19,652 nt of DNA from a virus (taxonomy: Duplodnaviria; Heunggongvirae; Uroviricota; Caudoviricetes): the IMG/VR virus record IMGVR_UViG_3300027836_000006; one strand, written 5' to 3'. Below the pieces are notes generated by a model that saw only the letters and a program-made list of their open reading frames with translations, had not been told where the DNA came from and made no database searches. Shown here one piece after another: positions 6,533 to 18,088 of the stretch. How positions within the stretch are numbered: the stretch's first letter is position 1; each line of letters starts with the position of its first letter. A program made the translations under genes and the position numbers.

Positions 6533-6561
6533 TTGACAGAGAGACTAAATAAACGTATAAT
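6533..6561 (+). promoter_or_regulatory. consensus sigma70 promoter P1 of the tRNA region
   Basis: TTGACA-N17-TATAAT. Confidence 0.85.
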
Positions 6562-6616
6562 AGAAATAAGTTAAACACACAGGCATAAATAACTTTAACA
6601 AGTTAGCCAAAAGTGG

Positions 6617-6645
6617 TTGACGAGAGTGTTGAAAGACACTATAAT
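6617..6645 (+). promoter_or_regulatory. sigma70 promoter P2
   Basis: TTGACG-N17-TATAAT. Confidence 0.85.
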
Positions 6646-6716
6646 AGAAACAAGTTAGCAAGCAATGTAACTTCTAAGCGTTGTAGAAATACAACAAAAA
6701 GAATTACAGAAAGTTG

Positions 6717-6745
6717 TTGACAAGGATGCTGAAAGGCATTATAAT
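6717..6745 (+). promoter_or_regulatory. consensus sigma70 promoter P3
   Basis: TTGACA-N17-TATAAT. Confidence 0.85.
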
Positions 6746-6803
6746 TAACACAAGACACTAGCATTCCGCTAGTAAATTTAAGAAGAGTAAACGAGAAAAC
6801 AAA

Positions 6804-6953
6804 ATGCAATCGAATTTTAAACATCAACAATTTAATACGATGCCCACACTGGCAGGCGTTATAGCCTCTAGTTGGTCGACGATTAATTGTGGAAGTTTAT
6901 CATATGATCGTACACCAGAGATTATCAGGGTCCGGGAGGGCTGGGATGGTTAA
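6804..6953 (+). CDS. putative attenuator leader peptide (49 aa)
   Basis: MQSNFKHQQFNTMPTLAGVIASSWSTINCGSLSYDRTPEIIRVREGWDG, between promoters and terminator; weak RBS. Confidence 0.55.
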   Translation: MQSNFKHQQFNTMPTLAGVIASSWSTINCGSLSYDRTPEIIRVREGWDG

Positions 6954-6986
6954 GTAACAACTTAATTACATTTCAAAACTTCAAGG

Positions 6987-7020
6987 ACCCTAGGATTAAA
7001 AACCCTAGGGTTTTTTGTTT
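6987..7020 (+). terminator. Rho-independent terminator with competing antiterminator
   Basis: accctagg/cctagggt hairpin plus T tract; agggtcc (6927-6933) complements ggaccct (6985-6991). Confidence 0.8.
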
Positions 7021-7034
7021 TCCGCAAGGAGAAT

Positions 7035-7184
7035 ATGTTAGATTTGAAAAGACAAGCAGAGTTTACGCAGTTACACACACTGACTAAACAAGATCTTCGC
7101 AAGATGATATTGGAAAAGTTGGAACGTGCAACAGCGTATTACAAAGCTAATCAAAAGCGAGAGATTGCCCAAGGGCAGTCGTAG
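7035..7184 (+). CDS. small hypothetical protein (49 aa)
   Basis: AAGGAG RBS; MLDLKRQAEF...; TAG stop. Confidence 0.6.
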   Translation: MLDLKRQAEFTQLHTLTKQDLRKMILEKLERATAYYKANQKREIAQGQS

Positions 7185-7297
7185 ATCGCAAAGTGTGAAT
7201 ATACAGGAAACGAGGTCCTGGCTCTGCACTTAAAACACGGAGCAAACGGGCGGCGACTAGGATGGAATCCCTCTTCTGGGACTAAAAATCAGTTCGT

Positions 7298-7359
7298 ATT
7301 AAAGCATACTTTTTGAACGCCAGTCATTTGCCGTGCAGAGTAAATTAGTGTGTTTTAAT
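7298..7359 (+). ncRNA. stem-closed RNA candidate (CAUACU/AGUGUG helix)
   Basis: 13-bp closing helix attaaagcatact/agtgtgttttaat. Confidence 0.35.
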
Positions 7360-7384
7360 ACACGCATTGGAAACAGTGCGTTAT

Positions 7385-7472
7385 GGATCTTGTTCCCCAT
7401 TGCCGGCTGTAACCCGGTAGCCATTAATAAGTGGGGTGGCGGCAAGTAGTTCGATTCTATCAAGGTCCACCA
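7385..7472 (+). tRNA. atypical D-armless tRNA-Tyr(GUA)-like RNA
   Basis: 8-bp acceptor, gccgg-ctGTAac-ccggt arm, 4-bp T stem, ACCA. Confidence 0.6.
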
Positions 7473-7478
7473 ATTTTT

Positions 7479-7552
7479 TCCCGGATAGTTAAATGGTATA
7501 ACAATCGGCTGATAACCGGTCATTACAAGTTCGATTCTTGTTCTGGGAACCA
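7479..7552 (+). tRNA. tRNA-Ile(GAU)
   Basis: cloverleaf, loop ctGATaa, CCA. Confidence 0.9.
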
Positions 7553-15715: not shown

Positions 15716-15718
15716 CAT

Positions 15719-15796
15719 GTAGCGGTGGCAGAGCGGCCCATTGCAACGGATTGCAAATCCGTAAAACCGTGAGTTCAAATCTCACCCGCTACTCCA
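15719..15796 (+). tRNA. tRNA-Cys(GCA)
   Basis: loop ttGCAaa, U73, CCA. Confidence 0.9.
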
Positions 15797-15857
15797 AATT
15801 TTGCTAGTTTTGAAAAACTAGTTGGTGGAAGCTACACTTAACCGTGTCGCCCCTTTT

Positions 15858-15911
15858 AGGATACTAACAGCAACTTTTAACTTTTATGGTAAAAAGAAAA
15901 TGTATCCTGTT
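15858..15911 (+). ncRNA. ACAGCAA-motif RNA 7 (short; possible Thr GGU hairpin)
   Basis: aggatac/gtatcct helix, acagcaa, tttt-atGGTaa-aaag. Confidence 0.65.
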
Positions 15912-15924
15912 TAGCCAAAATGTC

Positions 15925-15953
15925 GTGACAAGACACAGCAAAGATATTATAAT
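15925..15953 (+). promoter_or_regulatory. sigma70 promoter for motif RNAs 8-10 and the TROVE-like gene
   Basis: GTGACA-N17-TATAAT. Confidence 0.7.
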
Positions 15954-15990
15954 AGATACATAGCAAGCAGTAATGCTTGTAGAGAGTTTT

Positions 15991-16159
15991 AGGATCGGTA
16001 CAGCAACATTCATATTACTATGAATCGTTAGACACTGTGGTAGTAACTGGAGCAGAGTGCTTAAAAACACCGAGCGTTGAAGGGTGCTATTGAAACAAGA
16101 CTAACAAGCTCAGAGTGATGGCCTGAGTAAAATAAAAGCAGTCAACAACGATCCTGTTT
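15991..16159 (+). ncRNA. ACAGCAA-motif RNA 8 (long)
   Basis: aggatcg/cgatcct helix, acagcaa, tgttt tail. Confidence 0.65.
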
Positions 16160-16165
16160 AGTCAT

Positions 16166-16397
16166 AGGATGACTACAGCAACCTAAAATACTAACGTAAC
16201 TGCTATCGAAGGTGACCGTAGGGTACAGTAGAAATACTGTTCTAGCAATAGACGCTCAAGGGATAGATAGACTGGCAAAGCACCAGATATGATTTACATA
16301 CAGAAAAACATGTAATAGGCAACATGAATGTTGCTAGGGTCTGGGTGCTATAATTGGCCAGACCAGAAAATAAACAAATTGGCACACTCATCCTGTT
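16166..16397 (+). ncRNA. ACAGCAA-motif RNA 9 (long)
   Basis: aggatga/tcatcct helix, acagcaa, tgtt tail. Confidence 0.65.
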
Positions 16398-16405
16398 AAA
16401 GTTTT

Positions 16406-16462
16406 AGAATGTTAACAGCAACTTTTAAATTTCAAGCATATCGAAAATAAAATACATTCTGT
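16406..16462 (+). ncRNA. ACAGCAA-motif RNA 10 (short), abutting the TROVE-like RBS
   Basis: agaatgt/acattct helix, acagcaa, tttc...gaaa inner hairpin. Confidence 0.65.
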
Positions 16463-16475
16463 AAAGGTAATTAAA

Positions 16476-17885
16476 ATGAACGCATTTGTAAACGCAGTAG
16501 CAAACCAAGAAGCCCGTACCGAAAACGGTATGAAGGCACGTAAGTCAACAGCCAAGGCTACAGTTGACTTGTTTTACAAGATTGGCGCAAGCCGTGGCAA
16601 GGACATCACTCGTGATTTCACCGCGGCATACGTTGAAAACTCTGATGTAGCACTACGCATCGCACAATGGGCACGTGATGTCCGCGGTGGTGCTGGTGAA
16701 CGTCAGTTGTTCCGCGATATTCTAGTACATCTAGAAAAGCGTGACCCAGACGCCGCTTTGGCTCTTCTAAAGAAGATTCCAGAAGTTGGTCGTTGGGATG
16801 ACATCTTTGTCTTCACCAACCCAGACCTGAAGTCAGCCGCTTATACCATGTTGGGCGATGCCCTTCGTGCTAAGAACGGTTTGGCTGCAAAGTGGACTCC
16901 TCGTAAGGGTAAGATTGCGGCTGAAGTACGAGCATTCTTCGGAATGTCTCCAAAGCAGTACCGCAAGTCATTGGTAACAATGACAACCGTTGTTGAAACC
17001 CAAATGTGTGCAGGAGATTGGGATAACATCAACTTCAGTCACGTACCTTCTGTTGCTTCACGCAACTACAAGAAGGCATTCAACCGTCACACACCTGCGT
17101 TTGCAGAGTATGTGGCCAAGTTGGTAAGTGGTGATAAGACTGTTAAGGTTAACGCCAGCGCAATCTTCCCGCATGACGTGCTGAAGGGCATTGCTCACAG
17201 CTACACCAAGCTGGACAAGACAGAAACTGACCATGTGATCGCACAATGGGACGCTCTGCCAAACTACGTAGGTGACGCAAGTATCCTACCTCTAGTTGAC
17301 GTGTCTGGTTCGATGACTACATCTGTTGGTGGTAACACCGCAGTGCGTTGTTTGGATGTGGCAGTTTCACTGGGCTTGTACCTTGCGGACAAGAACAAGG
17401 GTGCGTTCAAGGACACATTCTTGACTTTCTCAAGCAAGCCAGAACTTGTTACCCTAAAGGGTAACATTGTTCAAAAGGTGGAACAAATGAGCAAGAGCAA
17501 CTGGGAAATGAGCACTAACCTACATGCCGCTATGGACAAGATCCTAAGCGTTGCGGTTAAGGGTTCAGTACCAGCTAGCGACATGCCAGCCATGTTGCTA
17601 ATCTTGTCAGACATGCAGTTCGACCAATGCGCTCGTTACGACGATAGCGCAATGGAAATGATTGAACGTAAGTTCGAAGCCGCAGGCTACAGCATGCCAC
17701 AAATTGTTTTCTGGAACCTAAACAGTTCAGATAACGTGCCTGTTAAGGCAGACAAGAGTGGTGCCGCATTGGTAAGTGGATTCAGTCCATCAATCATGAC
17801 TAGCTTGCTAGCCGCTGATTTGGATCAATTCACTCCAGAAGGCATCATGCTTAAGACAGTAATGAGTGATCGTTACGCTCTGTAA
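16476..17885 (+). CDS. TROVE/Ro60-like (DUF2828-type) protein with C-terminal vWA domain
   Basis: RDVRGGAGERQLFR, GRWDD, AAKWTPRK helical region; vWA MIDAS DVSGSM, ILSDMQFD, IVFWNL. Confidence 0.8.
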   Translation: MNAFVNAVANQEARTENGMKARKSTAKATVDLFYKIGASRGKDITRDFTAAYVENSDVALRIAQWARDVRGGAGERQLFRDILVHLEKRDPDAALALLKKIPEVGRWDDIFVFTNPDLKSAAYTMLGDALRAKNGLAAKWTPRKGKIAAEVRAFFGMSPKQYRKSLVTMTTVVETQMCAGDWDNINFSHVPSVASRNYKKAFNRHTPAFAEYVAKLVSGDKTVKVNASAIFPHDVLKGIAHSYTKLDKTETDHVIAQWDALPNYVGDASILPLVDVSGSMTTSVGGNTAVRCLDVAVSLGLYLADKNKGAFKDTFLTFSSKPELVTLKGNIVQKVEQMSKSNWEMSTNLHAAMDKILSVAVKGSVPASDMPAMLLILSDMQFDQCARYDDSAMEMIERKFEAAGYSMPQIVFWNLNSSDNVPVKADKSGAALVSGFSPSIMTSLLAADLDQFTPEGIMLKTVMSDRYAL

Positions 17886-18063
17886 GTAACTGCTGGCCCA
17901 CCTTAGCCTAGGCTGAGAATCCAGCATCCGCGATACACGAAATGTGGGATGAGCTGTGTATCCGGGGTTTGTAATTTCCTGACACAAAAATAATTATAGT
18001 ATTGGACACGCATACTTAAAAGCGAGGTGGGTGTAGGTGGAAACCCTACAACTAATTTTTGAG

Positions 18064-18088
18064 TAGCACCTTCGGGTGCTATTTTTTT
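18064..18088 (+). terminator. Rho-independent terminator
   Basis: tagcacc-ttcg-ggtgcta plus T7. Confidence 0.85.

Follow-up and report, generated by a model that had tools for sequence, protein, structure and literature searches.

Why would a phage carry, side by side, a putative attenuator, transfer RNA (tRNA) genes for all 20 amino acids, small RNAs that imitate anticodon arms, a Ro60-like protein and homologs of the RNA polymerase modulators omega and TraR? We studied this question for positions 6,533 to 18,088 of the IMG/VR record IMGVR_UViG_3300027836_000006 (Caudoviricetes), a stretch of 19,652 nucleotides that we refer to as the window. The original prediction read these parts as one translation-protection island of 11.5 kb. 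We find that this interpretation is partly supported: its theme, the supply of tRNAs and the upkeep of translation, holds. A single co-inherited and co-transcribed unit is not supported and, judged from the sequences, largely refuted. The comparison with related phages points strongly to a layered architecture, in which an attenuator would gate a first tier of tRNA genes, a second tier and omega would be expressed from their own promoters, and the Ro60-like protein with its RNAs would form an optional module. The coordinates of all features are given in Table 1.

The prediction of an attenuator was borne out by the comparison. We compared 50 distinct leader peptides with a mean identity of 67% and a minimum of 23%. 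In 49 of the 50 all 20 residues are present, not counting the start Met, compared to 21 ± 2.7 leaders after column permutation and to 3.3% of phage open reading frame (ORF) or protein windows. The single Cys of the leader shifts among about ten columns and is never lost. The 7-bp helix between the end of the leader ORF and the 5' arm of the terminator was kept in 50/50 cases, with compensatory swaps from A-U to G-C in 13 leaders and from C-G to U-A in one. The two features by which a leader attenuator is recognised, selected control codons and mutually exclusive antiterminator and terminator structures with covariation, were thus both found, and both the composition of the leader and the helix appear from these alignments to be under clear selection. 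In predicted folds the naked RNA forms the antiterminator, and masking of the ORF, as by a ribosome, yields the terminator. The attenuator is in all likelihood functional, and we infer that the movement of the ribosome along the leader would be coupled to read-through.

Two to four sigma70-type promoters precede the leader in nearly all relatives that have upstream DNA. Wherever enough DNA follows it, the leader stands at the head of a tRNA array, with 0.4-1.2 kb between the leader and the first tRNA. The leader samples ∼36 different codons and favours neither known nuclease targets nor the phage anticodons; for the latter reason we regard it as a general gauge of elongation. A match between leader codons and array anticodons was considered and rejected, with a decodable fraction of 0.82 against 0.82 expected. 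Directly behind the terminator lies a 49-residue ORF that has no PHROG match and has a homolog in the same place in many leader loci.

Multivalent leader-peptide attenuators such as those of ilvGMEDA, thr, his and trp contain runs of one to three amino acids. The phage leader shares with them the short ORF, the mutually exclusive antiterminator and terminator and the U-tail, but it contains all 20 amino acids, its output consists of tRNA genes and it is encoded by a phage. In the literature searched we found no all-20-amino-acid attenuator on tRNA genes.

ARAGORN reported 36 tRNAs in 7479-15796, and four further genes (Tyr at 7392, Ala at 7871, Ser at 8206 and Tyr at 11232) bring the array to 40. 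These cover all 20 amino acids with 11 duplicated anticodons, so the full set with backups of the original prediction is present. The block itself contains four near-consensus promoters, and internal promoters were found in 40/40 distinct leader-headed arrays, with a mean of 3.4 compared to 0.125 on the opposite strand. Because of these promoters the attenuator alone would gate just the stretch up to the first of them, here 7020-10835, and the predicted promoters thereby contradict a single co-transcribed unit. The absence of a strong internal terminator was confirmed: no clean intrinsic terminator occurs between 7020 and 18061, where weak candidates alone were seen at 9830 and 15427. The closing terminator is followed by a promoter at 18134 and by the rIIA-like gene to which it belongs, which begins at 18199. 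All parts are indeed on the plus strand, as one co-oriented block would require, but so are the credible genes in both flanks (the sole minus-strand ORF is an HNH gene at 4541-5113), and therefore co-orientation does not mark the block. There is no GC boundary either, with a GC content of 0.427 in the block and of 0.394 and 0.428 in the flanks.

The first internal promoter, at 10835, separates two tiers of tRNA genes. Tier A is the only source of Lys, Arg, His, Gln and Phe genes in the array, and tier B is the only source of Trp and Cys genes. In the window this promoter splits 10/10 scored same-anticodon pairs with one copy on each side, and the copy before it is the less canonical one in 9/9 non-Met duplicate pairs. 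Of the distinct pairs compared across the relatives, 119 have the lower score in the leader-proximal duplicate and 23 in the other copy; the corresponding counts are 19/0 for Ala, 14/0 for Asn, 11/0 for Thr, 13/3 for Pro, 17/3 for Glu and 16/6 for Asp. Counted by anticodon family, the leader-proximal copy is less canonical in 14 families compared to 2 (14/16 informative). A promoter lies between the copies in 168 of 202 duplicate pairs, compared to 121.5 by shuffling, and the anticodon loop differs in 116 of 150. The gated tRNAs retain CCA and show recurrent loop variants across phages. Since both the duplicates and the anticodon-arm RNAs described below divide between the gated and the ungated part, we read the array as consisting of a reserve that is gated and a standard set that is not, a reading whose pair counts share ancestry and whose score is crude.

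Several tRNA genes have unusual features. The leader-proximal tRNA-Glu (7624-7698) carries A54 in its T-loop, which recurs in many relatives. The tRNA at 14058-14149 combines a UAU (Ile) anticodon with a long variable arm, and Rfam gives it only a weak tRNA-Sec score. Outside the block, at 908-1030, there is a tRNA with a CUA (amber) anticodon and its own 12/12 promoter, a possible suppressor tRNA.

The second kind of RNA in the block is a family of small RNAs that we call handle RNAs. Nine strict copies are built alike, with a closing stem of 7 bp and ACAGCAA behind it, and a tenth copy is divergent. The stem positions that our search left free are 98% paired, with four pair types. A canonical anticodon arm was found in 38 of 59 short handles compared to 1.6 ± 1.2 in dinucleotide shuffles, so the predicted anticodon mimics stand well above chance. 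The arms are most often of the Lys(UUU), Ser(UGA) and Tyr(GUA) type, Lys(UUU) being the commonest. The handles with anticodon arms lie within 4 kb of the leader in 43 of 45 cases, and 32 of them precede the first promoter where 17.7 are expected. The permuted domain of handle 4 (9857-9975) matches Rfam YrlA with 35.1 bits (E 1.1e-4), below the gathering score of 69, and its fold has z -2.2. Matches to Dictyostelium Class I RNA (E 0.8 for handle 3, and E 2.3) were too weak for use.

The handles occur together with the Ro60-like protein. The handle pattern is present in 20/20 contigs with Ro and in 1/13 without it, the latter being mostly fragments. In most relatives 13-17 nt separate the end of the final handle from the start codon of Ro; the third pair in the stem of this handle is a compensated A-U pair. 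In the Stenotrophomonas phage DLP6 and the Vibrio phage nt-1 a handle stem likewise covers the ribosome-binding site (RBS) of Ro. Handle 9, which takes this position in the window, is predicted to be unstable without protein, and this fits an operator that needs the protein. From the co-occurrence and the RBS-abutting copy we consider it very probable that the Ro-like protein binds the handles.

The assignment of the 469-residue protein itself rests on its fold. Pfam gives DUF2828 and DUF7788 and no TROVE domain, there is no sequence match to Ro60 in the PDB, and the identity to Ro60 is 13-17%. The predicted model (mean predicted local distance difference test score 94.7) matches Ro60 with a Foldseek E of 2e-9 and a VIA Z of 21.2 over 413 residues (root-mean-square deviation 4.2), and the next unrelated fold scores Z 9.9. 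The ring fold of Ro60, HEAT repeats with a vWA domain, is thus present in the predicted structure, as the original prediction of a Ro60-like particle implied. We found no report of a DUF2828 Ro60-like protein with anticodon-bearing partner RNAs in the literature searched, and none of a phage omega.

Ro and the handles move independently of the rest. Six contigs have 20-35 kb between Ro and the leader, with Ro mostly on the upstream side, and a promoter within 1.2 kb before Ro, mostly near -540, was found in 44 of 49 distinct loci. Strict handles are missing from 14 of 40 related arrays, in several branches, and the omega tree, which is based on few columns, forces at least three changes of handle loss or gain. 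One relative that is 98% complete has omega, tRNAs and the kinase described below, and lacks Ro, handles and a leader-type helix. Components thus assort independently in the case of TraR and of Ro with its handles, and leader, array and omega remain linked. We also observed a Ro module placed mid-array in L028, L062, L070 and L052, where 12-19 tRNAs follow it; in three of these omega lies 7-10 kb downstream of the module.

Both predicted polymerase modulators are present, with Pfam matches to PF01192 for omega and PF01258 for TraR. Omega was found in 30 of 33 related contigs, at the tail of the array, and has its own promoter in 39 of 63. The protein keeps the GNRF-LV-A--RAR core and the C-terminal AL-EI helix. 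The free N-terminal ARVT of omega forms ppGpp (guanosine tetraphosphate) site 1. In the window an extension ending in LSRGP replaces MARVT, so that there is no free ARVT; the subclade of L082, L109, L110 and L121 keeps a host-like MARLT or MARIT N-terminus. TraR shows a C4 zinc finger and an acidic N-terminal tip, whose acidic residues align as Glu and not as Asp. It is present in 4 of 33 related contigs and in 9 of 33 omega-Ro loci, in two positions. TraR and the 304-residue ORF that travels with it are passengers, and in other phages cytidylyltransferase, PfkB kinase and cupin genes occupy their slot. Genes of these three types are also found outside the block of the window: the segment 3291-6508 holds AhpC with an AhpD-like ORF, the antisense HNH gene and then a cytidylyltransferase, a PfkB kinase and a cupin (sugar-nucleotide type), which in some relatives stand between omega and Ro. 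A 75-residue ORF (11821-12048) is found here within the array, behind a 12/12 promoter of its own, and directly after Ro in most relatives. In L150 an ORF resembling a parvulin-type isomerase (8593-8850) occurs near omega.

The original prediction also stated that no RtcB or RNA ligase is visible in the window, and this proved correct. Our family scans of the window ORFs detected no RtcA, RtcB or ligase, a query with the Rnl1-like ligase of the relatives gave no match in the window, and the block contains no ORF of the size or family of RtcR, its promoters being of the sigma70 type. The relatives differ in this respect. Within 6.5 kb after Ro, 44 distinct loci contained a Pnk-like P-loop kinase in 40 cases (PHROG 505, E 1e-8), a calcineurin-like phosphoesterase (metallophosphoesterase) in 40, a DSP-like phosphatase in 37, a T4 Rnl1-like ligase in 6 and IF-1 in 8; in L067 the IF-1 gene lies at 11227-11439 (Pfam E 2e-19). 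The kinase stays near the tail of the array where Ro is missing or distant. RtcB, Rnl2, a CCA-adding enzyme and RelA/SpoT were not found in five relatives (83-100% complete), a weak negative since the same search missed a real Rnl1 in G001. In the window Ro is followed directly by the terminator and rIIA (17886-18199) with no kinase or phosphoesterase block, whereas the closest-looking relatives (L008, L043 and L077) have a gap of 3-6 kb between Ro and rIIA with phosphatase, phosphoesterase and kinase genes. This suggests that the phage lost or moved its repair block.

Table 1. Predicted features of the tRNA region, in order of position in the window
Feature	Position	Strand	Remarks
Three tandem sigma70-type promoters driving the leader	6533-6561, 6617-6645, 6717-6745	+	12/12, 11/12 and 12/12 consensus
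Leader ORF, 49 codons	6804..6953	+	all 20 amino acids; conserved in homologs
Antiterminator arm AGGGTCC inside leader ORF	6927-6933	+	pairs with terminator 5' arm
Attenuator terminator	6984..7020	+	fold z -3.3; 5' arm 6985-6991 is the antiterminator partner
49-residue ORF of no assigned function	7035..7184	+	directly behind terminator
Tier A, 23 tRNA genes	7392..10805	+	18 amino acids; reached from leader promoters alone
Handle RNA 1	7558..7614	+	Tyr(GUA) anticodon arm
Handle RNA 2	8380..8440	+	Lys(UUU) anticodon arm
Handle RNA 3	8530..8588	+	Ser(UGA)-like arm
Divergent handle RNA (CAGCAA)	9183..9399	+	T-arm mimic; related sequence in 61 loci
Handle RNA 4, circularly permuted tRNA mimic	9840..9966	+	Arg(UCU) arm, T arm, closed acceptor, D arm
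First internal promoter, tier A/B boundary	10835..10863	+	12/12
Tier B, 17 tRNA genes	10918..15796	+	15 amino acids; mostly canonical; promoters 10835, 11787, 14162
Internal promoter	11787	+	12/12
Handle RNA 5	13167..13280	+	multi-hairpin cargo
Omega promoter	14162-14190	+	11/12
Omega (RpoZ) homolog	14212..14466	+	PF01192, E 5e-7; PDB sequence match
TraR/DksA-family zinc-finger protein	14571..14813	+	PF01258, E 9e-11; PDB sequence match
304-residue ORF, no family	14801..15715	+	travels with TraR; weak glycosyltransferase-9 lead
Handle RNA 6	15858..15909	+	
Ro module promoter	15925..15953	+	11/12
Handle RNAs 7 and 8	15991..16395	+	long conserved cargo; related sequence in 70 and 62 loci
Handle RNA 9, AGAAU/AUUCU variant	16406..16461	+	abuts Ro ribosome-binding site; candidate autoregulatory operator
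Ro60-like protein, 469 residues	16476..17885	+	DUF2828 + DUF7788/vWA; PHROG 850
Strong intrinsic terminator closing the region	18061..18088	+	

The window contains further structured elements. Four spacers, 7160-7392, 8735-8825, 10296-10452 and 13290-13582, are conserved in 69, 59, 37 and 99 fetched loci, respectively; they have long closing stems and no Rfam match and are candidate non-coding RNA families. A stem-enclosed RNA at 8980-9103 (z -3.5, 5 loci) holds an internal tandem duplication of a CUGAAUUGACAG hairpin with a AAGGGGAGCC motif. Flanked by tRNAs we found a T-arm within a closed stem (10612-10725), a multibranch RNA with a closing stem of 14 bp (10993-11140) and a T-arm with a CCA remnant and no cloverleaf (11505-11612).

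That the window comes from a large phage is seen from the rIIA-like gene behind the block and from relatives of its Ro-like protein, 87-96% identical, on IMG/VR contigs of up to 383 kb. On balance we consider it fairly probable that the window is the resident tRNA region, layered in build, of an uncultured family of ∼350-380 kb freshwater phages. The sigma70 promoters and the proteobacterial type of omega suggest a proteobacterial host. The sequence of the window was also found in freshwater metatranscriptome contigs, and ∼90% of the block, including exact contigs, is present in two runs of one freshwater sample from 2017. These contigs span the whole window including its flanks and may include DNA, and their sample may be the one from which the record itself comes; transcript ends and levels are not readable from them, and the high depth over Ro is the sum of the contigs of relatives and says nothing about expression. 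In a database search the block and an omega of this type were found in no deposited phage, and the exact Ro-like protein had no record. The stretch of RsoM2USA that we examined has 22 tRNAs and no leader homolog, Ro or omega, and RSP15, nt-1 and DLP6 have a Ro-like gene in or near tRNA regions without omega or a TraR of this type.

Several known systems resemble parts of this arrangement. The Salmonella rsr-yrlBA-rtcBA operon (Hughes et al. 2020, PMC7790460; Chen et al. 2014, PMC4201824), named as a parallel in the original prediction, is alike in the Ro60-fold ring beside small RNAs, in a putative permuted T-acceptor-D tRNA mimic among them (handle 4, which stays below the gathering score of YrlA) and, as we propose for the phage, in an induction linked to tRNA trouble. 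However, its sensor is RtcR, which binds tRNA fragments and acts with sigma54, and here it would be a translated leader; no RtcR, RtcA or RtcB is found in the window; and the handles lack the Ro-binding motif GNCGAA of the YrlA RNAs and carry ACAGCAA. The parallel is therefore one of analogy and not of membership, as sensor, ligase and RNA motif differ. The tRNA and RNA-repair repertoire of jumbo phages (Iyer et al. 2021, PMC7824862; T4 Pnkp/Rnl1) is alike in the large tRNA set and the Ro/TROVE-fold protein, and the relatives of our phage are also alike in the Pnk-like kinase, phosphoesterases and Rnl1-like ligase near the array. The window differs in that healing and sealing genes are missing, and the survey (PMC7824862) describes no tRNA leader attenuator, split into gated and ungated isodecoders, handle RNAs or omega.

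The L-array of Anabaena trn (Santamaria-Gomez et al. 2021, PMC8421152) likewise has supernumerary tRNAs with housekeeping and alternative subsets; it is induced by translational stress and rtcB is co-regulated (PMC8421152). It differs in being located on a bacterial plasmid under the repressor TrcR (PMC10272220) with no attenuator, whereas here both subsets stand in one phage array. Ro60-fold proteins beside Y-like or tRNA-like RNAs are known from the Thermus phage phiLo, with Yrl1 and Yrl2 (PMC12135203), and from Bas63 gp130 (PMC11482910). The phiLo Ro60 is a structural match to the 469-residue protein (Z 16.7, 17% identical), and the accessible parts of these two papers describe no handle family, anticodon cargo or RBS-abutting copy. 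Overall the arrangement is like a mix of a multivalent attenuator, the Anabaena trn array and a Ro60/Y-RNA particle (PMC8421152, PMC4201824, PMC12135203).

These observations can be combined into a mechanism, which we give as a proposal. The host sigma70 polymerase would start at the three leader promoters. A ribosome running through the leader would cover the antiterminator arm and the terminator would form; a ribosome stalled earlier, at a codon for any amino acid, would leave the arm free and transcription would continue. Tier A (∼4 kb) would depend on this read-through, with its less canonical duplicates, the only Lys, Arg, His, Gln and Phe tRNAs and the anticodon-arm handles, and would be an inducible reserve, most likely for cut or depleted host tRNAs. 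Tier B tRNAs and omega would be made from their own promoters regardless of the sensor. In the optional module the Ro60-like protein would bind the handle stem, stabilise or display the handle RNAs and probably repress its own translation via the last handle copy. Behind Ro most relatives have a Pnk-like kinase and phosphoesterases, in some cases Rnl1 as well.

What is this machinery for? That its main purpose is to counter tRNA-targeting defences or toxins, and not general starvation or codon supply, seems quite possible to us, and we hold this view tentatively. It is plausible because phage tRNAs that escape anticodon nucleases are known: T5 tRNA-Lys against PARIS (PMC11455837) and the tRNAs of van den Berg et al. 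2023 (PMC10264068) are alike in their altered anticodon stem-loops. The texts of these papers describe no inducible tier, and any resistance of the tRNAs studied here would be our extrapolation. A more specific version, in which the leader senses any tRNA loss and releases nuclease-resistant isodecoders together with Ro60-like anticodon-arm decoy particles, the last handle matching Ro synthesis to free handle RNA, would be a damage-inducible counter-defence at the RNA level; in this complete form we consider it rather unlikely.

A number of points weigh against the layered proposal. Related arrays share ancestry, so that our counts overstate the independent support, and the Ro-bearing contigs were partly chosen by Ro. 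The score for canonical tRNAs is a crude sweep of ARAGORN thresholds, and the less canonical copies may be genes in decay on which selection has relaxed. In about ten arrays tier A is short, with a promoter less than 1 kb after the leader. The leader codons are untuned to the phage anticodons, and the sensor may report faults that the array does not fix. Promoter use, termination and binding are predictions throughout. Finally, Bas63 gp130, which has the only published phenotype for a structural Ro60-like phage protein beside tRNAs, counters Ppl, a proposed DNA degrader (PMC11482910); this shows an anti-defence role.

The alternative that survives best is homeostasis of nutrients or growth rate: tRNAs would be topped up whenever elongation is slow in starved and slowly growing lake bacteria, omega and TraR would retune the host polymerase, and the Ro ribonucleoprotein would serve RNA quality control or modulate PNPase. 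The unbiased sampling of codons for all amino acids by the leader speaks for it, as does the fact that the Ro60 and Y-like RNAs of the Thermus phage dampen the host PNPase (PMC12135203) and that the Anabaena trn array responds to translational stress in general (PMC8421152). We see this as possible, if on the unlikely side. It leaves unexplained the differences in the anticodon loop and stem of the gated copies (the loop in the 116 of 150 pairs), the kinase, phosphoesterase and Rnl1 neighbours and the bare anticodon arms, with Lys(UUU) the commonest; Lys(UUU) is the target of PrrC and tRNA-Lys that of PARIS (PMC10264068, PMC11455837).

Another possibility is an accretion hotspot, i.e. a strongly transcribed and tRNA-processed region that gathers small RNAs and genes, with duplicates that drift and handle cargo that is neutral tRNA debris. 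The order of the tRNAs is indeed shuffled between relatives, sugar-nucleotide, cupin and unknown genes take the omega-Ro slot in other phages, and TraR moves. Nevertheless we consider it improbable given the selection on leader composition and helix, the CCA and recurrent loop variants of the gated tRNAs and the 20-fold excess of anticodon arms over shuffles. The single attenuator-controlled, co-inherited island with all parts acting jointly against tRNA-targeting defences is very improbable: read-through could reach Ro, as no strong internal terminator was found, leader, array and omega are almost always linked and end-healing genes follow Ro in most relatives, but the internal promoters of every array, the distant Ro of six contigs, the arrays without strict handles, the scarcity of TraR, the nearly complete relative without Ro, handle or leader-type helix and the lack of a strand or GC boundary all speak against it.

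Codon compensation and evasion of defences have competed for 50 years as explanations of the tRNAs carried by phages. The matched same-anticodon pairs of this family, one copy gated by the sensor and the other under plain promoters, would provide a built-in controlled comparison for this question. In the same way, the host-like and the extended N-termini of the phage omega proteins would form a natural pair for a comparison of ppGpp site 1.

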